The position numbers were made by a program, and so were the translations under genes. A stretch of 64,000 bases of DNA, from positions 661,310 through 725,309 of the forward strand of contig CP055308.1 of assembly GCA_013374855.1 (NCBI GenBank), read 5' to 3'. Position 1 is the first letter of the stretch; each line of letters starts with the position of its first letter. The stretch is from Candidatus Woesebacteria bacterium (lineage in GTDB: Bacteria; Patescibacteriota; Microgenomatia; UBA8517). This document shows positions 30,278-42,940 of the stretch, piece after piece. Under the pieces are notes generated by a model. The model had not been told where the DNA came from and ran no database searches. It saw only the letters and a program-made list of their open reading frames with translations.

Positions 30278-30336
30278 TTTTAGGAAAAGGACTCTGTTGT
30301 AAATTAAATCAACAAGAAGATATTGTCAAGTAGCAG

Positions 30337-30408
30337 TGCGCCTGGAGAGAATCGAACTCCCATATTCGGTTCCGAAGACCGACGTTCTGTCCGTTGAACT
30401 ACAGGCGC
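30337..30408 (-). tRNA. tRNA-Arg (anticodon TCG)
   Basis: Reverse complement folds with acceptor GCGCCTG, anticodon loop CTTCGGA, T-loop GGGAGTTCGATTCTC. Confidence 0.8.
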
Positions 30409-30450
30409 ATTTAGACAAAGAAATAGCTAGCCTGTATAATTATAGGCCAG

Positions 30451-31533
30451 ATGGCAGATATTTATCAACAAATTGAGGATATCCAAAAGGAAATAAGAGA
30501 AACCCCATATCACAAAGGCACAGAACACCACATTGGTCTTCTGCGTGCTCGTATCGCACGATTAAGGGATAAACTGCTTGAATCAACAAGCAAAAAATCA
30601 GGTGGTGGGGGAGGATACGCTATTAAAAAGCAAGGTGATGCAACCATTGTTCTTGTTGGCCCACCTTCTGTTGGTAAATCAACCCTTATAAACAGATTGA
30701 CAAACGCCAACTCCAAGATTGCTCCTTACGCTTTTACAACAGTCTCAGTTATTCCAGGGATGATGAACTATAGAAACGCAAAAATTCAAATCCTTGATGT
30801 TCCAGGACTCATCGAGGGAGCAGAAGAAGGGAAAGGAAGAGGAAAAGAAGTAATTTCCGTCATCAGAGGTTCTGACCTTCTGGTTCTTATAACTGAACCA
30901 ACAAAAATAGAAGCTCTTGAAAGAATATCTACTGCGCTTGAAAAAAACGGAATAAGAATAAATAAAGAAAGACCAGATATCAAGATTGAAAAAAAGACTC
31001 AAGGTGGAATAAAGGTCTTTTCAAATATAAACCAAGATTTATCAAAAGAGACAATCAAAGATATCATTCTTGAAATGGGAATAAGAAATGCTGAAATTAA
31101 GATAAACCAAAAAATAAGCATAGAAGAATTAATTGATGCTCTTTCCAAAAATAGAGTCTATATCCCTGCTGTTTTTGTTGTTAATAAGTCAGATCTAATT
31201 GCCAATAAAGAACAAGGAGATGGCAGTATAGAAAAACCCATTCTAATAAGTGCTCAAGAAGGTTATGGAATAGAAATCTTTCTTGAATCAGTTTGGAAAA
31301 AATTAAAACTTATAAACGTTTATTTAGTGGGGCCAGATGAAAGACCATCACTTAGAAACCCAATGATAATAAAGGATGGCTTAACATTGTACGACATTGC
31401 AAAAAAAATTGGAGATGATTTTGCCCAAAAAGTTAAATCCGCAATAATCTGGGGAAATAGTGCAAAATTTGAAGGGCAACAAGTTTCTCTCAAAACAAAA
31501 GCGACAGATGGAATGATGGTAAGATTTGTTTGA
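30451..31533 (+). CDS. OBG-class GTPase of the DRG/Rbg1-like type with C-terminal TGS domain
   Basis: G1 GPPSVGKST, G3 DVPG, G4 NKSD, plus a C-terminal TGS-like region. Domain order matches archaeal/eukaryotic DRG proteins. Confidence 0.7.
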   Translation: MADIYQQIEDIQKEIRETPYHKGTEHHIGLLRARIARLRDKLLESTSKKSGGGGGYAIKKQGDATIVLVGPPSVGKSTLINRLTNANSKIAPYAFTTVSVIPGMMNYRNAKIQILDVPGLIEGAEEGKGRGKEVISVIRGSDLLVLITEPTKIEALERISTALEKNGIRINKERPDIKIEKKTQGGIKVFSNINQDLSKETIKDIILEMGIRNAEIKINQKISIEELIDALSKNRVYIPAVFVVNKSDLIANKEQGDGSIEKPILISAQEGYGIEIFLESVWKKLKLINVYLVGPDERPSLRNPMIIKDGLTLYDIAKKIGDDFAQKVKSAIIWGNSAKFEGQQVSLKTKATDGMMVRFV

Positions 31534-31560
31534 AAAATATTCTTCTGTTGTTTAATAATG

Positions 31561-31632
31561 AGCGGTGGAAGGGATTTGAACCCTCGACCTCTTCCTTGGC
31601 AAGGAAGCGTTCTACCACTGAACTACCACCGC
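31561..31632 (-). tRNA. tRNA-Gly (anticodon GCC)
   Basis: Reverse complement: acceptor GCGGTGG, anticodon loop TTGCCAA, T-loop GGGTTCAAATCCC. Confidence 0.85.
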
Positions 31633-31652
31633 ATCTCTTTATTAAATTAATG

Positions 31653-31725
31653 TGCCGAGGGCGTGAGTCGAACACGCATCTGACGCTCTTCAGGCGCCCG
31701 CCGTGACCACCTTGGCTACCTCGGC
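31653..31725 (-). tRNA. tRNA-Phe (anticodon GAA), atypical D-arm
   Basis: Reverse complement: acceptor GCCGAGG, anticodon stem GGCGC/GCGTC (one G-U), loop CTGAAGA, T-loop GTGTTCGACTCAC. D-loop of 9 nt on a 3-4 bp stem is unusual. Confidence 0.65.
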
Positions 31726-31753
31726 TTTTCTGGTAAAAAGTATTATATCAAAA

Positions 31754-31933
31754 AGTCAACGACCAATAAACTTTCCTATCAAAGTAAAAACCAAAAAGGC
31801 AACTACTATACCAATTAAAATCTTAATCATAAAAACAAACTCCGGATAAGCAGAAAGAGTACTCCAAAATTTTCTAGATATCAAAGCCAGCCAATAATCA
31901 ATGGATGCTTTTTGATATTTTTCCTCAATAGAC
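31754..31933 (-). CDS. hypothetical small membrane protein (59 aa) inside the tRNA cluster
   Basis: ORF MSIEEKYQKASIDYWLALISRKFW...IVVAFLVFTLIGKFIGR, below the ORF-track length cutoff. One predicted TM helix; no other support. Confidence 0.2.
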
Positions 31934-31965
31934 ATGATAATTTTTGCAAAAAACCAGTAGTAGGG

Positions 31966-32039
31966 TGACCGCTGAGGGACTCGAACCCCCGGCCTTCTGA
32001 ATGTAAGTCAGACGCTCTAGCCAACTGAGCTAAGCGGTC
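31966..32039 (-). tRNA. tRNA-Val (anticodon TAC)
   Basis: Reverse complement: acceptor GACCGCT, anticodon loop CTTACAT, T-loop GGGGGTTCGAGTCCC. Confidence 0.85.
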
Positions 32040-32044
32040 TTTTG

Positions 32045-32126
32045 TGCGCGGGACAGGATTTGAACCTGCACGCCCGAGGGCACAGCCTCCTCAAGACTGC
32101 GTGTCTACCAATTTCACCACCCGCGC
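32045..32126 (-). tRNA. tRNA-Leu (anticodon GAG)
   Basis: Reverse complement: acceptor GCGCGGG, anticodon loop TTGAGGA, long variable arm, T-loop GCAGGTTCAAATCCTG. Confidence 0.85.
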
Positions 32127-32132
32127 ATCAAG

Positions 32133-32216
32133 TGCAGGTGAGAGGATTTGAACCTCCAAGAGCAAAAGCTCATACGGCTCTGAACCGTACGCGTCTGCCA
32201 GTTCCGCCACACCTGC
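32133..32216 (-). tRNA. tRNA-Leu (anticodon CAG)
   Basis: Reverse complement: acceptor GCAGGTG, anticodon loop TTCAGAG, long variable arm, T-loop GGAGGTTCAAATCCTC. Confidence 0.85.
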
Positions 32217-32257
32217 TTATTTCTCTTATTCTACCAGAAATGAAAGACAATTTGAAC

Positions 32258-33280
32258 TCAAACTGGCAGGCGCTCTTTCCCTTGGTAATCACGAACGGTG
32301 TTTAATAAAAGCCTCTTTAGAATTTCAAGAAAAGAAATCCCATAAAGGTCTAAAATTGAAGAGAGAGCAACATCTGCCTCTTTTGGCCCAAACGCCGGAT
32401 TGCAATTTGCATCTATAAAAAAATATCGTCCAGATTGATCCATTCTTATATCAAACTTGCCATAATCGTACATAGAAACAACATCAAAAGCCTTTTTTAC
32501 ATATTCTTTTAAGAGGTTGTCTTCAAACTTTCTATATTTAAACACTTCTCTTTTGCTAATCCACTGATCCTCAAAAGTTGCAAAGATATACTTGCCCTTT
32601 TTTTTGAAAACTTTCTCAGCAAGATATACCTTTTTATTTAAACCCTCAAGAAGAATAGCTGTAATTTCCCTGCCGACTATAAATTCTTCTACCAGCACTG
32701 GTTGCTTATAAGTTCTAATCAAATACTTGATTCGATCATTCAGATGCTTGCTATTCTCAGAAACCGCATTCTTGGTTATTTCAACAGCTCCATGAACTTC
32801 ATTTAGTTTCGAGATAAGAGGAAAACGAAGGGTGGGGTCAAGATAATAACTGGGTGAATCTATCAGCTGATAATGAGGAACAGGAACACCTGCCTGTTGA
32901 AGCAATTTTTTTACTAAAAACTTATTAGTATCAAGAGATTTTCCAAGCACAGAAGCGCCAGTATAGGGGAGGTCGAGAAGCTCAAGCGCAGCAGGAATCG
33001 AGGAGGATAAGCTTTCTGATCCTTTCACAGAATCAACCAAATTTAGTACTACATCAGGTCTTTTCTTTCTTAATTTTTCGAAAACCAAAGAATTACCCGG
33101 ATAAACTAGAACCTTCAAACCCAACTTCTTTAAGTACTCTGCAACAAGCAAGGCATCTTTTTTTGCATCTTTTTCTGTTAGATAATGCTCTCTTGTTGGA
33201 AAATATTCTCTTTTGACATCGCTGTAAAGAATAACAGCACTTTTGGGCAACTCATAGCCATTATTTAACTTATTTGTCAT
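32258..33280 (-). CDS. D-Ala-D-Ala ligase-family ATP-grasp enzyme (second ddl-like paralog, specificity unknown)
   Basis: Ddl-like N-terminal domain (RPDVVLNLVDSVKG...LLDLPYTGASVLGKSLDTNKFLVKKLLQQAGVPVP) and ATP-grasp C-terminus (FFIDANCNP). Confidence 0.55.
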   Translation of the reverse strand: MTNKLNNGYELPKSAVILYSDVKREYFPTREHYLTEKDAKKDALLVAEYLKKLGLKVLVYPGNSLVFEKLRKKRPDVVLNLVDSVKGSESLSSSIPAALELLDLPYTGASVLGKSLDTNKFLVKKLLQQAGVPVPHYQLIDSPSYYLDPTLRFPLISKLNEVHGAVEITKNAVSENSKHLNDRIKYLIRTYKQPVLVEEFIVGREITAILLEGLNKKVYLAEKVFKKKGKYIFATFEDQWISKREVFKYRKFEDNLLKEYVKKAFDVVSMYDYGKFDIRMDQSGRYFFIDANCNPAFGPKEADVALSSILDLYGISFLEILKRLLLNTVRDYQGKERLPV

Positions 33281-33361
33281 TGAACATATATTGAATTATT
33301 TTTAAAATTTGTCAAGAAAAATTTGGCAAGAAATAGAATTAATTGATATAATTATTTCAAA

Positions 33362-33434
33362 GTCCCTGTAGCTCAATGGATAGAGCAGTCCCCTTCTAAG
33401 GGAAAGGTTGAGAGTTCGACTCTCTCCAGGGACA
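33362..33434 (+). tRNA. tRNA-Arg (anticodon TCT)
   Basis: Acceptor GTCCCTG/CAGGGAC, anticodon loop CTTCTAA, T-loop GAGAGTTCGACTCTCTC. Confidence 0.85.
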
Positions 33435-33442
33435 CTAGACAG

Positions 33443-33515
33443 GGGCCTGTAGCTCAATTGGCAGAGCAATTCCCTCTTAAGGAAGCGGTTGGAGGTTCGA
33501 GTCCTCCCAGGCTCA
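33443..33515 (+). tRNA. tRNA-Lys (anticodon CTT)
   Basis: Acceptor GGGCCTG/CAGGCTC, anticodon loop CTCTTAA, T-loop GGAGGTTCGAGTCCTCC, CCA encoded (to 33518). Confidence 0.85.
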
Positions 33516-33637
33516 CCACCTTTTGCAAAACTTATTTAACAACCATCACAAAAAGTCTAGCCTATCAAAACCACACAATAAAAGTTGACATTAGAAATTC
33601 AATATGGCATTCTAATGAAGAAAAAGCAAACTTTTAT

Positions 33638-34270
33638 ATGTTAAGTTTCTCAAAAGATAATTTAGATTTTGGCTTTTGGAGCAAAGCTTTCTTAGTATTT
33701 ATTTTTATTACCCTTACTCCTTTCGTAATAGCAACCTCAATTCTAGCTCTTTATTCGCTCGAAGAAAAAGAATTATCACCTACAATACCCTTTCCTACAG
33801 ATAGACCGGAAAATCTAAAACTTCTAGTTTCTGATTCGTCTTCTTTTCCAGAAACAGAAACAAAACTGGAGTTCCAAGATGCAAGAGTGGAACTGGTTAA
33901 AAGATATTTAAATCACTACAAATCACCGCTTCTTCCTTTTGCTGAAATGATAGTAAAAGAATCAGACAAAAACAATATTGATTGGAGACTTTTGGTTGCC
34001 ATTGCTCAACAGGAATCAAATCTCTGCAAGGTGATACCAGAGAACAGCTTTAACTGCTGGGGGTGGGGAATCCACAGTAAAGGAACTCTTAAATTTCAAT
34101 CGTATGAAGAAGCAATTAGAACAATCGCCCGTGGATTAAAGAAAAATTATGTAGATAAAGGATACAAAACACCAGAGGAAATAATGAGAAAGTATACCCC
34201 TCTTTCCAATGGAAGCTGGGCACAGGGAGTTATCCAATTTATGGAAGAGATAGCCCTGCCTCTCGAATAA
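33638..34270 (+). CDS. membrane-anchored peptidoglycan hydrolase, GH73 glucosaminidase (FlgJ-C-like) family
   Basis: Start moved to the internal MLSFSK... because the ORF-track start lies inside tRNA-Lys. One TM helix, then IDWRLLVAIAQQESNLCK...NCWGWG and a C-terminal Y/W-rich region matching the glucosaminidase pattern. Confidence 0.5.
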   Translation: MLSFSKDNLDFGFWSKAFLVFIFITLTPFVIATSILALYSLEEKELSPTIPFPTDRPENLKLLVSDSSSFPETETKLEFQDARVELVKRYLNHYKSPLLPFAEMIVKESDKNNIDWRLLVAIAQQESNLCKVIPENSFNCWGWGIHSKGTLKFQSYEEAIRTIARGLKKNYVDKGYKTPEEIMRKYTPLSNGSWAQGVIQFMEEIALPLE

Positions 34271-34280
34271 CTTCAAAACT

Positions 34281-35048
34281 ATGCCAGCGCATTATGACAA
34301 TTATGATTATCCGTCCTACTGGAAAGAGAGGAAATACGAACATTTAAGTGAAATCTTGGCTTTGAGAAGCTTTCTAAAAGAAATACCCAAAATTCAATCT
34401 CTTATTGATATTGGAGCAGGATATGGAAGAATAACTGAAGAATACATATACAGAGCAAGAAAAATAATACTTACTGATCCTTCAGCAAGGCTTCTCAAAA
34501 TAGCAAGAGAGAAATTTGGCAAAAAAAAGAATATAAAGTTTATACAAATAGGTGTTGAAAACCTGGAAAAGAAAGTAAGAAAAAATTTCTTTGATTTAGT
34601 ACTTCTAATAAGAGTCTTACACCATATCGAAAATCCAGACAAAGCCTTCAGAATAATCAATCACATAACAAAAAGAGGTGGCTACCTAATAATGGAATAT
34701 GCAAACAAAAGTCATTTCAAAGCTGTAATTAAGGAATTTATTAGGGGGAACTTTACTTTCCCCATTGATATATCTCCAAAAGATATTAGGTGTCCTAAAA
34801 ACATAAAAAAGAAAAGCATCCCCTTTATAAACTATCATCCTGATAAAATAGAAGAAACTCTGAAAAACAACGGCTTTAAAATAATTAAAAAAAGATCTGT
34901 ATCTAACTTTCGAGACCCTCTTCTCAAAAAAATATTTCCACTTGAGTTCTTAATCGACATCGAGGAAAAGATTCAACCCTTTTTGCAAAAAATTAATTTT
35001 GGACCTTCTATTTTTATCCTTGCTAAAAAGATAGAAGATGTTGATTAA
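34281..35048 (+). CDS. class I SAM-dependent methyltransferase
   Basis: Motif I LIDIGAGYGRIT and motif post-I ILTDPS. Confidence 0.7.
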   Translation: MPAHYDNYDYPSYWKERKYEHLSEILALRSFLKEIPKIQSLIDIGAGYGRITEEYIYRARKIILTDPSARLLKIAREKFGKKKNIKFIQIGVENLEKKVRKNFFDLVLLIRVLHHIENPDKAFRIINHITKRGGYLIMEYANKSHFKAVIKEFIRGNFTFPIDISPKDIRCPKNIKKKSIPFINYHPDKIEETLKNNGFKIIKKRSVSNFRDPLLKKIFPLEFLIDIEEKIQPFLQKINFGPSIFILAKKIEDVD

Positions 35049-35070
35049 TATAGGAATTAAAACCAAAAAC

Positions 35071-35099
35071 TTGACAACCCTGTAGTAATATGCTATAGT
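35071..35099 (+). promoter_or_regulatory. near-consensus sigma70-type promoter (TTGACA-17 nt-TGcTATAGT with extended -10)
   Basis: TTGACA at 35071..35076, 17 nt spacer, TATAGT at 35094..35099 preceded by TG. Confidence 0.55.
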
Positions 35100-35105
35100 A
35101 TGACC

Positions 35106-35216
35106 TAGGTTCTGAGGCTAACCCAGTTTACTGGGAACTTGGCGTCAGAATTTTCCCCGGAGCTTCCAAATGGGAGCTCCCTAAAAAAGACTCTTGGAAA
35201 CAAGAGTCTTTTTTTA
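35106..35216 (+). ncRNA. candidate ~110 nt structured leader/small RNA ending in an intrinsic terminator (possible riboswitch-type attenuator for the downstream GH73 gene)
   Basis: Nested helices CTGAGGC..GCGTCAG enclosing hairpin CCCAG-TTTA-CTGGG, then hairpin GGAGCT-N10-AGCTCC, then terminator AGACTCTTG-GAAA-CAAGAGTCT plus T7. No ORF. Promoter 35071..35099 immediately upstream. Confidence 0.45.
35188..35216 (+). terminator. rho-independent terminator (9 bp stem, GAAA loop, 7 T)
   Basis: AGACTCTTGgaaaCAAGAGTCTTTTTTT. Confidence 0.7.
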
Positions 35217-35226
35217 GTTTAAAAGC

Positions 35227-35709
35227 ATGAGAAAAATACTAACTATTACACTAACATTGCTTATAATAGCCCTGATTAAAGCGGGAGAGGTTGCTTTGGC
35301 AAAAGAAGAGAAAATTATACAAAAGAAATTAATACTTATAAGCTACCTTAGAAACAAAAAATCTCCCCTTGAAGAATATACAGAAAAACTAATCTTATCA
35401 GCAGAAAACAACAATATAGACTGGAGATTGATACCAGCTATTACAGGAGTTGAATCAAGTTTTGGAAAAAGAATCCCTTATAATTCATACAATGCCTACG
35501 GATGGGCAAATGGAGAATATAAATTTGATTCATGGGAAGAATCTATAGAAATCGTATCTCAAACACTAAACAAAAAATATGTCCAAAAAGGGGCGACAAA
35601 TATAGATAAAATAGCAAGAATCTATGCTCCACCATCTACAACTTGGGCAGATAAGGTAAAATTTTTTATAAATCAAATAGATCCTATTGGTCTTCCCTAC
35701 GAACTTTAG
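35227..35709 (+). CDS. secreted peptidoglycan hydrolase, GH73 glucosaminidase family (paralog of 33638..34270)
   Basis: Signal peptide, then NNIDWRLIPAITGVESSFGK...NAYGWANG...YAPPSTTWADKV, sharing the same motif spacing as the upstream paralog. Confidence 0.5.
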   Translation: MRKILTITLTLLIIALIKAGEVALAKEEKIIQKKLILISYLRNKKSPLEEYTEKLILSAENNNIDWRLIPAITGVESSFGKRIPYNSYNAYGWANGEYKFDSWEESIEIVSQTLNKKYVQKGATNIDKIARIYAPPSTTWADKVKFFINQIDPIGLPYEL

Positions 35710-35746
35710 TTTAACTTGCCATTATTTTCTGCTAAAATCAAATTAC

Positions 35747-35829
35747 GCCGAAGTGGCGGAACTGGCAGACGCGCACGGTTTAGGACCGTGTTCCCAAAAG
35801 GATTGTGGGTTCGACTCCCACCTTCGGCA
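35747..35829 (+). tRNA. tRNA-Leu (anticodon TAG)
   Basis: Acceptor GCCGAAG/CTTCGGC, anticodon loop TTTAGGA, long variable arm, T-loop GTGGGTTCGACTCCCAC. Confidence 0.85.
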
Positions 35830-35860
35830 CACATCTCATCTCAACTCTTTCTATTAAAAA

Positions 35861-35995
35861 ATGGAAAACAAGAAAATAGAAATTAAACACAAAATTCAAA
35901 TAACAAAAAGGGAAGAAGTAATTTACGCCTTTATACCCATAGTAGTGTTTTTTGTTTCCTTTTTCTTATCCTTCTTTATAATAAAAAACAAATGA
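35861..35995 (+). CDS. hypothetical 44 aa membrane peptide
   Basis: ORF MENKKIEIKHKIQITKREEVIYAFIPIVVFFVSFFLSFFIIKNK. Its stop overlaps the next gene's start (ATGA). Confidence 0.2.
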   Translation: MENKKIEIKHKIQITKREEVIYAFIPIVVFFVSFFLSFFIIKNK

Positions 35996-36518: not shown

Positions 36519-37667
36519 ATGCCAAGAGTAATAAAAGGAGAGAAAATACCTATAAAACTTTGGCTTGATAAAATTGATCCATTAACACTTGAGCAAGCTA
36601 AAAATCTAGCAAACCTTCCTTACGCTTATAAGTGGATAGCCTTAATGCCTGATGCCCACCCCGGTTACGGTATGCCAATAGGTGGGATTCTTGCCACAAC
36701 GGATGTAATAGTTCCCAATGCTGTGGGAGTAGACATAGGATGTGGTATGAGAGCAGTAAAAACAGATGTTAAAGAATTAAGTAAAGAATCACTTATTAAA
36801 ATACTAAGAGAAATAAGAAAAACAATCCCCACAGGTTTTGCACACCATAAAACAAAACAAAATTGGATTGGATTTTCAAAAGCTCCAGAAGTTGAGATCA
36901 TACAAAAAGAGCTAGACAAAGCACATTACCAAATAGGAACACTTGGAGGCGGTAATCACTTTATAGAAATATTAAAAGATGAAAACTCGTACATTTGGCT
37001 TATGGTACATTCAGGAAGCAGAAACTTTGGCTTAAAAACTGCTGAATTTTTCTACAATAAAGCTTTAAAATTTTGTCAGGAAAAAGATATAAAACTACCA
37101 ACCATAGAACTTTCCTTTCTGCCCATCGACAGCAAGATTGGAAAAGAGTATTTTGAGTCTATGAATTATTGCCTTGAATTTGCACAAGCCAACAGGAAGT
37201 TAATGATGCAAAGGCTAAAAGAAATTGTAAATGAAGAAACAGGATGTGGTTTTATCGAAGAAATCGATGTGCATCATAACTACGCAAGTCTAGAGAACCA
37301 CTTTGGCAAAGATGTTTTCGTGCATCGTAAAGGAGCAATAAATGCTGAAAAAGGAAAAATAGGAATTATTCCCGGCTCTATGGGTACACCAAGCTACATA
37401 ACAGAAGGGAAGGGTAATCCCGAAAGCTTTAACTCTTCATCTCACGGAGCAGGAAGAAAGCTTGGCCGTCGAGAAGCTACAGAAAAACTTAATCTGAAAA
37501 AAGAGCAAAAGAAAATGAAAGACATCATTGGAAAACCTAGGCAAAAAAAGGAGCTAGAAGAAGCACCAGGTGCTTACAAAGATATAGAAAAGGTAATGGA
37601 AAAACAAAAAGACTTGATTACTCCCAAAGTTAAACTAAAACCCCTTGCTGTTGTAATAGGTATATAA
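36519..37667 (+). CDS. rtcB: RtcB-family RNA ligase (short form)
   Basis: DAHPGYGMPIGG, GCGMR, GGGNHF and HSGSR motifs in RtcB order. Confidence 0.75.
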   Translation: MPRVIKGEKIPIKLWLDKIDPLTLEQAKNLANLPYAYKWIALMPDAHPGYGMPIGGILATTDVIVPNAVGVDIGCGMRAVKTDVKELSKESLIKILREIRKTIPTGFAHHKTKQNWIGFSKAPEVEIIQKELDKAHYQIGTLGGGNHFIEILKDENSYIWLMVHSGSRNFGLKTAEFFYNKALKFCQEKDIKLPTIELSFLPIDSKIGKEYFESMNYCLEFAQANRKLMMQRLKEIVNEETGCGFIEEIDVHHNYASLENHFGKDVFVHRKGAINAEKGKIGIIPGSMGTPSYITEGKGNPESFNSSSHGAGRKLGRREATEKLNLKKEQKKMKDIIGKPRQKKELEEAPGAYKDIEKVMEKQKDLITPKVKLKPLAVVIGI

Positions 37668-38192
37668 CTATAACTTAAAAATTTCTAATACTCTGTAAGA
37701 AGCTCCATTTTTTGATAACTTTGATTCAAAAATGACAATTTCCTTTAACTTTTCCTTAAAGAAAACTGGCTCTTCAAAATGCAAAAGAGATCTACCTTTT
37801 CCAAACCTAGCAAGAGTTATGTGGGGAATAAGATTTCTCCTTTCTTTTTTCAGATTCAATTTCTCAATTAAAGTATTTCTAAAATTTTCCAATTGAACAA
37901 TTATTTTGCCCTCTAACCACAAAATACGAGGATTCTTCTTATCAGGAGCAGACTTTATACTAACAAAATCGACCTCAAAATTATAAAAAATTTGTTCATC
38001 TAAAAAATTAGACAATAATAATACTATTCTTTTTATTTCATCTTCATACCAAGGAGGAATTAATGTCATATGAAGATTATTTGGGCTAACAAATCTAACA
38101 AAATCGGGAAATTTTTTCTGTTTTTGCCAGTTAGTTATATAACTTACCAGATTTTCTGATAATTTAAAACCAATAAAAATCCGTTTCTTCAT
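37668..38192 (-). CDS. thpR: RNA 2',3'-cyclic phosphodiesterase (2H family, LigT/ThpR)
   Basis: Two H-x-T-x motifs (LHMTLIPP and PHITLARF). Confidence 0.7.
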   Translation of the reverse strand: MKKRIFIGFKLSENLVSYITNWQKQKKFPDFVRFVSPNNLHMTLIPPWYEDEIKRIVLLLSNFLDEQIFYNFEVDFVSIKSAPDKKNPRILWLEGKIIVQLENFRNTLIEKLNLKKERRNLIPHITLARFGKGRSLLHFEEPVFFKEKLKEIVIFESKLSKNGASYRVLEIFKL

Positions 38193-42783: not shown

Positions 42784-42857
42784 GGACGGTTAGCTCAGTT
42801 GGTTAGAGCGTTCGCTTGACGTGCGAAAGGTCGGGGGTTCGAGTCCCTCACCGTCCA
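42784..42857 (+). tRNA. tRNA-Val (anticodon GAC)
   Basis: Acceptor GGACGGT/ACCGTCC, anticodon loop TTGACGT, T-loop GGGGGTTCGAGTCCCTC. Confidence 0.85.
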
Positions 42858-42863
42858 CAAAAA

Positions 42864-42940
42864 GGGCCCGTAGCTCAGTTGGCTAGAGCGCTTGGCTGGC
42901 AGTCAAGAGGTCAGGGGTTCGACCCCCCTCGGGTCCACCA
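42864..42940 (+). tRNA. tRNA-Ala (anticodon GGC) with encoded CCA; 3' end is the junction of an integrated element
   Basis: Acceptor GGGCCCG/CGGGTCC with the G3:U70 Ala identity pair, anticodon loop CTGGCAG, T-loop AGGGGTTCGACCCCCCT. The last 6 nt (CCACCA) are shared with repeat A1. Confidence 0.85.

Follow-up and report, generated by a model that had tools for sequence, protein, structure and literature searches.

Why would a bacterium set a near-consensus promoter and a strong intrinsic terminator, with no conserved open reading frame (ORF) between them, immediately ahead of a gene for a cell-wall hydrolase? This question is raised by positions 35071 to 35226 of a 64,000-nucleotide stretch of a Candidatus Woesebacteria genome (contig CP055308.1, positions 661,310 to 725,309; the whole stretch is hereafter called the window), where such a unit lies on the plus strand. 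An earlier note, made from the letters of the sequence, had read it as a riboswitch or attenuator, perhaps of the ydaO type that responds to cyclic di-AMP (c-di-AMP), with some other, possibly new, class or a free-standing small RNA (sRNA) as the fallback. We found that the unit is one copy of an undescribed, structured, covariation-supported RNA family of Microgenomates, within the Candidate Phyla Radiation (CPR). Our tentative reading of its function is that of a promoter-proximal attenuator module, in which a short terminated RNA would be the main product and the hydrolase would need read-through, with a trans-acting factor probably involved. To our knowledge, almost nothing is known about gene regulation and non-coding RNA in the mostly uncultivated CPR bacteria, and the family would govern entry into the gene for a secreted peptidoglycan hydrolase, in bacteria whose envelope and episymbiotic lifestyle are both debated.

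An undescribed RNA family of Microgenomates

The segment 35100–35216 folds into three independent hairpins with a minimum free energy of −57.9 kcal/mol, compared with −29.3 ± 3.5 kcal/mol for dinucleotide shuffles (z = −8.3; 0 of 200 shuffles were as stable). The first of these, the 5′ hairpin, defines the family. Its outer helix P1 pairs 35107–35115 with 35145–35153 (9 bp) and is separated by a G35116·G35144 mismatch from P1b (35117–35121 with 35139–35143), in which the pairs beside the mismatch, G35117–C35143 and C35118–G35142, are invariant; P2 (35122–35126 with 35131–35135) follows, closed by a UUUA loop. Both P1b and P2 vary among homologues. The helices named in the earlier note were correct, P1 being longer than it had described and bordered by the G·G mismatch.

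With one genome taken per species, a hydrolase profile scan yielded 80 loci, and nhmmer searches with the window leader gave a match just 5′ of the hydrolase gene in about 50 of them, the proteins being 45–60% identical. The aligned leaders share a conserved core, A-N-R-U-U-C-Y-G-A-G-G-C and G-C-G-U-Y-R-G-A-A-U on either side of a variable hairpin, and RNAalifold predicted 15 pairs, 10 of which carry compensatory changes. A covariance model of the 5′ hairpin (R1), run over the 64-kb window with filters off, returned a single match (47.2 bits, E = 6.6e-8; next best 15.6 bits), and over the 80 loci it returned 44 strong matches (41–65 bits; type A), every one on the gene strand just 5′ of the hydrolase. 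Together with simpler hairpins in more distant lineages (types B and C, described below), some form of the hairpin stands on the same strand ahead of 76 of the 80 orthologues (44 type A and 32 type B or C). Conservation of the leader 5′ of orthologous hydrolases and covariation of its helices were the two tests that the earlier note had set beforehand, and the proposal of a conserved structured leader came through both.

Statistics on P1 were taken from the protein-ascertained copies (the metagenome pattern used below itself fixed parts of P1 and of the −10 element). In these copies, 94.5% of paired cells were complementary, as against 77.1% in shuffles and 28–42% with slid partners, and 108 double-change cells were seen where 36 were expected, neither figure being corrected for kinship. 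At one P1 position 24 of 40 sequences have a G·U pair, which on the opposite strand would be C·A. These abundant G·U pairs fit the plus strand only and therefore exclude an antisense RNA and a DNA palindrome. The arms are, to be sure, inverted repeats, and the promoter spacer holds a TATAG...CTATA dyad, as an operator or recombination site might; yet the frequent G·U pairs, the compensatory changes that preserve pairing and the varying distance between the arms make a DNA-level element extremely improbable.

More than 190 independent loci, from several candidate phyla, show this order of promoter, hairpin and terminator, with covariation, which goes far beyond chance. Of 161 type A copies, 156 have a terminator-like hairpin with a T run 3′ of P1, the median spacing being 32 nt, and a typical type A RNA is about 83 nt long; from the end of P1 to the hydrolase ATG the median distance is 50 nt, nearly all of it terminator. 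The module is inherited vertically and is chromosomal, not on viral contigs: neither the type A nor the type B pattern had an exact match in IMG/VR, and R1, run as a specificity control over 719 kb of viral sequence preselected by a loose motif, had no match at E ≤ 0.1, so that a phage origin was rejected. We found no further copies, and thus no regulon, in the window (filters off) or elsewhere in the 80 + 43 loci, and no contig was matched twice among the matches listed in the gene-blind scan described below, contigs of 593 and 792 kb included; copy number per genome was judged by the strict pattern and within the fetched loci only.

Searches of known families left the leader without a name. 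At the gathering score, Rfam 15 recognized only tRNAs in the whole window. At E ≤ 10, the region 34950–35350 gave only sub-threshold matches driven by the terminator (the best, BTnc231, with 23 bits where the gathering score is 80) and no ydaO, and at E ≤ 0.5 ten homologous loci covering all variants again gave tRNAs only. The ydaO suggestion thus drew no Rfam match, either in the window or in the ten homologous loci, and the fallback reading of the earlier note lies close to the data. Signal recognition particle (SRP) RNA, 6S, Y RNA/YrlA, PyrR and preQ1 had no Rfam 15 covariance match over the hairpin; SRP RNA, 6S, Y RNA/YrlA, PyrR and the hammerhead were also rejected by eye, given the variable P2 loop, the lack of a conserved GNRA or symmetric loop and of a tRNA-like domain, and CCGA variants that break the CUGA core. 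In the literature on RNA motifs and riboswitches in Microgenomates, Woesebacteria, Patescibacteria and CPR we found no description of the family. With more than 190 examples at a fixed genomic address, and absent from Rfam, it is a ready candidate for an Rfam entry.

Promoter, terminator and the promoter-less hydrolase gene

The near-consensus promoter of the earlier note is present where it had been placed (Table 1) and matches the consensus at 11 of 12 positions, plus the TG of the extended −10. It is one of only three plus-strand sites of this quality between 30000 and 40000, and one of the other two (33323) lies just 5′ of tRNA genes. Across 42 distinct protein-ascertained homologues, the −35, the TG and TATAGT are all kept, and the distance from the −35 to an invariant A is 36–37 nt. 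This A is the putative transcription start, judging from its spacing and invariance, and the hairpin would then open with the first nucleotide of the transcript. The spacer, too, is conserved: it holds an element CCTRTA(A/G)T at 35078–35086 (consensus cctataat in homologues), which occurs at no other promoter of the 64-kb window. Such conservation exceeds the needs of sigma-70, and an operator or a tandem promoter could account for it. We also observed that CCTATA(A/G)T, directly after the −35, resembles a second −10 (window 35077–35099 and homologues), and that the −10 is nearly always TATAGT preceded by C, which creates the TATAG...CTATA dyad; CTATAG is itself palindromic.

Table 1 Features of the leader and its surroundings, in window coordinates
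Feature	Position	Strand	Description or basis
Sigma-70-type promoter	35071–35099	+	−35 TTGACA 35071–35076, 17-nt spacer, extended −10 TGcTATAGT 35091–35099
Invariant A, putative transcription start	35107	+	8 nt past the −10 hexamer; invariant alignment column
5′ hairpin, family-defining	35107–35153	+	Fold, model R1, covariation
Pyrimidine-rich linker (U/C)	35154–35158	+	U-rich, 8–12 nt in most homologues
Hairpin 2	35159–35180	+	GGAGCUUCC-AAAU-GGGAGCUCC, 9 bp
Intrinsic terminator	35183–35214 (T run 35209–35215)	+	AAAAAAGACUCUUG-GAAA-CAAGAGUCUUUUUU plus U
Secreted GH73-like (Glucosaminidase-type) hydrolase, 160 aa	35227–35709	+	Signal-peptide-like N-terminus, family searches
tRNA-Leu(UAG)	35747–35830	+	Constant downstream partner; own promoter-like site 35711–35738
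Upstream context	33638–35048	+	Membrane-anchored glucosaminidase-like paralogue ~33638–34270; class I S-adenosylmethionine-dependent methyltransferase 34281–35048

The RNA of the window (~35107–35215) would be about 109 nt long. Its second hairpin, in which compensatory changes are found in loci L162 and L184, is the counterpart by descent of the stem that forms the terminator in most relatives, its U run having been lost in this Woesebacteria sublineage; 3′ of it stands a new terminator of the A-tract/U-tract type, the stem of which changes in a compensatory manner from AGACUC/GAGUCU to GGACUC/GAGUCC in L082 and L131. The resulting three-hairpin layout is common to L082, L131, L181, L183 and L108. 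The strong intrinsic terminator just 5′ of the hydrolase that the earlier note described was confirmed (stem and T run together, 35183–35215), its T run ending 11 nt before the ATG at 35227. Its description of a transcript without ORF also holds as far as conserved ORFs are concerned: the sole ORF in the RNA, a 4-codon ATG GGA GCT CCC TAA at 35170–35184 within hairpin 2, 8 nt past a GGAG, is not conserved, the ATG reading ACT in the closest relative, L082.

The protein encoded behind the terminator scores 24.8 bits against Pfam Glucosaminidase PF01832, below the cut-off of 30.2. Its homologues go by Woesebacteria, Microgenomates or Patescibacteria names; PF01832 is present in several of them, which are listed by NCBI as glucosaminidase domain-containing. 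The family profile matches the cell wall hydrolase of a phage (PDB entry 8yxk, E = 1e-5), and E76 is invariant among homologues. The earlier assignment to glycoside hydrolase family 73 (GH73) therefore stands as GH73-like, by way of the homologues and the PDB profile match, but not by the PF01832 score of the window protein.

Judging from its sequence, the gene has neither a promoter nor a Shine-Dalgarno (SD) sequence of its own. A −10-like hexamer (at least 5 of 6 positions) precedes the hydrolase in 12 of 91 orthologues, with TGn in 1 of 91, whereas a −10 precedes tRNA-Leu(UAG) in 30 of 35 distinct cases, with TGn in 19. Transcription of the hydrolase would thus depend entirely on read-through at the terminator. 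SD-like motifs are found in just 10 of the 44 long ORFs of the window, and many ORFs (e.g., 4798, 30451, 35992, 41191, 51889) have a TATAAT hexamer 6–8 nt before the ATG, which suggests that leaderless mRNAs are widespread in this Woesebacteria genome. Against this background of scarce SD sequences and many apparently leaderless genes, it is unusual to find a structured leader of about 120 nt.

Copies without the hydrolase gene

A gene-blind scan gave a different view of the family: a DNA pattern made of the −10 and the hairpin arms, applied to metagenome contigs with no gene information, retrieved at least 120 stretches. Among the 120 matches listed, the RNA is followed by the hydrolase, and nearly always then by tRNA-Leu(UAG), in 68; in 42 the RNA and its terminator are followed directly by tRNA-Leu(UAG), with no hydrolase (absence being judged at the locus itself); in 8 the contig is truncated, and the arrangement differs in 2. 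Upstream, again among the matches listed, the glucosaminidase-like paralogue is found in 104 of 120 and the class I methyltransferase in 84 of 120. The same tRNA follows the hydrolase in about 70 of the 80 genome loci, distant ones included. The gene order is thus fixed as paralogue hydrolase, methyltransferase, RNA, hydrolase and tRNA-Leu, and the link of the RNA to the hydrolase and to tRNA-Leu(UAG) is ancient.

In the copies without hydrolase, the hairpin positions left free by the search pattern are 92.5% paired, compared with 77.9% in shuffles. Moreover, near-identical RNAs occur with (L016) and without (L128) the hydrolase, so the presence of the hydrolase is labile, while the RNA is kept. 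These observations bear on the main rival to the attenuator, a possibility which we consider real but doubtful, namely that the RNA is an autonomous sRNA, stable and probably protein-binding, with a housekeeping or regulatory role in trans, and that the hydrolase hitch-hikes on leaky read-through. The unit is complete from promoter to terminator, with a promoter of tRNA-grade strength; it is kept, with covariation in P2, at the 42 hydrolase-less loci beside a tRNA that has its own promoter; and its hairpin and terminator fold independently, as described below. Yet a conserved single-stranded seed, as expected of a base-pairing sRNA, was not found: the P2 loop and the linker vary, and conservation sits in the stem. 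The link to the hydrolase is, moreover, near-universal in the genome set, and a hairpin set right against the start codon, as seen in distant lineages, is what one would expect of a cis element. We know of no partner protein for such an RNA.

Distant variants of the hairpin

Of the 36 loci without a strong R1 match, 32 carry a simpler hairpin, of type B or C, behind the same kind of promoter; no form of the hairpin was found in the four most distant of the 80 loci (L074, L075, L080, L081). The hosts include Gottesman-, Shapiro-, Davies- and Levybacteria, among others. These hairpins are near-perfect (16–19 bp, −17 to −25 kcal/mol), those of type C being perfect helices without a pocket. The simpler hairpins read AGAUCCU(R)AGGU, a variable stem-loop and RCUUUAGGAU, followed by U6–8. 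In type B, CUUUAGGAU is the conserved 3′ arm and the helix covaries; its pairing is 94%, as against 87% in shuffles and 30–60% with slid partners (kinship not corrected). The position of the type A G·G mismatch is a G·U pair in type B and again G·G in L076 and L067.

In five of these loci (L059, L061, L069, L077 and L078), the AUG right behind the U run is the start codon of the hydrolase itself. In most other type B and C copies, an AUG, GUG or UUG after the U run opens a mini-ORF of 2–10 codons, and a further GC-rich hairpin, with a U run of its own, overlaps this mini-ORF before the hydrolase ATG is reached. The three grades (hairpin, U run and AUG; hairpin, mini-ORF and second hairpin; hairpin and separate terminator) show how a hairpin next to a start codon can become a separate terminated RNA. 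A leader peptide was considered and rejected: the mini-ORF is usual among type B copies, but a start codon of this kind is missing from type A, and the ORF of the window is unconserved.

As a separate observation on the type B leaders (L023–L079), their 3′ arm CUUUAGGAU contains an 8-mer, UUUAGGAU, that also occurs in the anticodon loop and stem of the adjacent tRNA-Leu(UAG), and their 5′ arm carries CUA or CUG, which are Leu codons. Mimicry of tRNA-Leu by the arm was judged probably a coincidence of the AGGAUCCU palindrome.

Attenuation, refolding or a constitutive element

If the leader were a riboswitch of the terminator type, the 5′ arm of the terminator should have an alternative partner. 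We therefore folded each homologue truncated before the 3′ arm of its terminator. P1 was intact in 152 of 156 truncated folds and the 5′ arm of the terminator did not invade the hairpin; the median extra stabilization was only −2.6 kcal/mol, from local pairing. The 5′ hairpin itself has a median of −19.7 kcal/mol and is not metastable. In these models hairpin and terminator fold independently, and no riboswitch-type switch is predicted. Ahead of hydrolases, the terminators have −18 kcal/mol and 6.8 T in the 9-nt tail; the idea that they are leakier there was rejected, their strength being equal to that of the terminators before tRNA. Sequestration of an SD sequence was rejected for the window copy as well, since the genome hardly uses SD sequences and the type A ATG lies past the terminator.

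A metabolite riboswitch, for c-di-AMP or a new ligand, with the 5′ hairpin as aptamer and the terminator as expression platform, is accordingly improbable. Its position 5′ of a cell-wall hydrolase, with a terminator, would suit such a device. The clustering of bases around small internal loops, namely the G·G mismatch with its two invariant G–C/C–G pairs and a 2×2 AA/GA loop, also speaks for it; the stems covary, with the conserved positions found for the most part within P1 and beside the 1×1 and 2×2 loops. In types B and C, furthermore, the 3′ arm has an AGGA 7–8 nt before the AUG, although SD sequences are scarcely used in this genome (10 of 44 ORFs). Against these points stand the absence of an Rfam match, ydaO included, the lack of an antiterminator or any alternative pairing for a hairpin of about −20 kcal/mol, the replacement of G·G by an ordinary G·U in type B and the pocketless helices of type C. 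A riboswitch should, moreover, always lie 5′ of a regulable gene, whereas 42 of the 110 informative copies among the matches listed precede only a tRNA with its own promoter, and the RNA persists there with nothing to regulate.

What does fit is the layout of a promoter-proximal attenuator: a hairpin and U run stand between promoter and ORF, and the downstream gene is promoter-less. The earlier proposal of a riboswitch or attenuator thus survives in its second half (promoter, terminator, promoter-less gene) but hardly as the classical riboswitch, for which no alternative pairing was found. In the attenuator reading, which we put forward as plausible though far from settled, RNA polymerase would start at about A35107, make the three-hairpin RNA and mostly stop at the T run, giving an abundant RNA of some 109 nt, while those polymerases that pass the terminator would transcribe the hydrolase. 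The module would in this way set, and probably gate, expression of the hydrolase. Since hairpin and terminator fold independently, a trans-acting factor is likelier than metabolite-induced refolding, and because the arm sequences are conserved well beyond the needs of pairing, such a factor would probably read the 5′ hairpin, or its 5′ arm while emerging. It might act through antitermination, either factor-dependent or processive, or else through processing and stabilization. We infer both the efficiency of termination and the trans-acting factor from the sequences.

Several points weigh against this reading. The 42 hydrolase-less copies keep promoter, covarying hairpin and terminator, and the RNA therefore does something independent of the hydrolase. 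Type C homologues are perfect helices without an obvious recognition feature, and among the conserved neighbours (paralogue hydrolase, methyltransferase and DUF192 protein) there is no candidate factor. Finally, the terminator also ends the upstream operon of paralogue and methyltransferase, which could be its main job.

In a further, unlikely explanation nothing is sensed: the 5′ stem-loop would guard the RNA against decay that depends on the 5′ end, and the terminator would shield the region from the operon of paralogue and methyltransferase and hold expression of the hydrolase at a fixed, reduced fraction. The hairpin does begin at the putative +1, there is no terminator between the methyltransferase stop (35048) and the RNA promoter, terminator strength is equal with or without hydrolase, and no switch is predicted. 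However, a stabilizer or terminator needs pairing only, yet the arm sequences persist across candidate phyla as the inner stem drifts (type A, A-N-R-U-U-C-Y-G-A-G-G-C ... G-C-G-U-Y-R-G; type B, AGAUCCURAGGU ... CUUUAGGAU), and the promoter spacer is conserved as well, which sigma-70 would not demand.

The attenuator and the autonomous sRNA are not mutually exclusive. A more speculative version that joins them, possible but by no means favoured, is a lineage-wide CPR switch, in which a factor would read the 5′ hairpin and decide passage into hydrolase, tRNA-Leu and downstream genes, the RNA standing alone where the hydrolase was lost. If true, a promoter among the strongest of the genome would gate a potentially lethal cell-wall hydrolase.

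Neighbouring genes

The methyltransferase (34281–35048) has as its best NCBIfam match CmoM, a tRNA U34 mcmo5U methyltransferase, over its full length but with 63 bits against a cut-off of 366. It lies in a tRNA-rich region near tRNA-Leu(UAG), which has U34, and it may be a tRNA-modifying enzyme. The paralogue upstream of it (33638–34270) is membrane-anchored and glucosaminidase/SLT-like; as listed, its long ORF runs from 33458 and would overlap tRNA-Lys (33443–33518), so that the real start is probably further downstream. The window holds 15 tRNAs in 64 kb, with clusters at 30336–33518 and 42784–42940, and several listed ORFs that overlap tRNA genes (e.g., 31881–32024, 32042–32305, 33302–33469 and 35687–35886) are spurious. 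Between tRNA-Leu and the DUF192 gene, a 44-aa hydrophobic ORF (35861–35995) matches no family and has a conserved counterpart in L082, the closest relative, alone (78% identity). About 1.3 kb past the RNA, an RtcB RNA ligase gene (36519–37667, plus strand) converges with one for a LigT-like 2H phosphoesterase/2′-5′ RNA ligase (37668–38192, minus strand); RtcB is found in 1 and LigT in 3 of the 120 loci among the matches listed, so this neighbourhood is not conserved and is probably unrelated to the RNA.

Comparison with known systems

Among known leaders, the ydaO riboswitch (RF00379) resembles the present family as a terminator-type leader 5′ of cell-wall hydrolase genes. It differs in having a pseudo-symmetric aptamer of about 130 nt rather than a single hairpin of 47 nt; here, platform coupling and a covariance-model match are absent. 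The leaders of ompA and aprE and the cryIIIA STAB-SD are 5′-terminal stabilizer stem-loops, with no terminator before the ORF and no sequence conservation across phyla. They share with our hairpin a position within a few nt of the 5′ end and a GAGG element near that end, whereas this hairpin precedes a terminator and keeps its sequence across phyla. In Listeria, SreA is a terminated riboswitch fragment that acts as an sRNA; it too is a short 5′ leader transcript, stopped at an attenuator, that acts in its own right, but its parent, unlike the element here, is a known riboswitch.

Closer in layout are LoaP-dependent leaders, lambda N-boxB and HK022 put, in which a small sequence-specific hairpin near the 5′ end recruits a processive antiterminator. 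The analogy lies in a hairpin near the 5′ end followed by one or more intrinsic terminators without structural competition; unlike in these systems, the hairpin of types B and C itself bears a U tract, and there is no sequence similarity. We know of no antiterminator factor of the LoaP or N type in CPR.

The likeness to the PR′–6S RNA–tR′ region of phage lambda, the site of Q antitermination, extends to the gene that would be controlled. There, a strong promoter constitutively yields a short terminated RNA, the sequence around the promoter is kept more strictly than sigma requires, and the late genes past tR′, which include a peptidoglycan-degrading lysis enzyme, are expressed only by read-through. 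Promoter, short terminated RNA and a cell-wall enzyme behind the terminator recur in our module, which suggests a functional analogy and not family membership: unlike lambda, the module is chromosomal and vertically inherited, what it conserves is a 5′-terminal RNA hairpin, and neither a Q-like protein nor a qut site was identified here. If the lineage-wide switch described above is real, Microgenomates would have a chromosomal antitermination switch resembling that of the lambda late genes, or else a new housekeeping RNA–protein pair.

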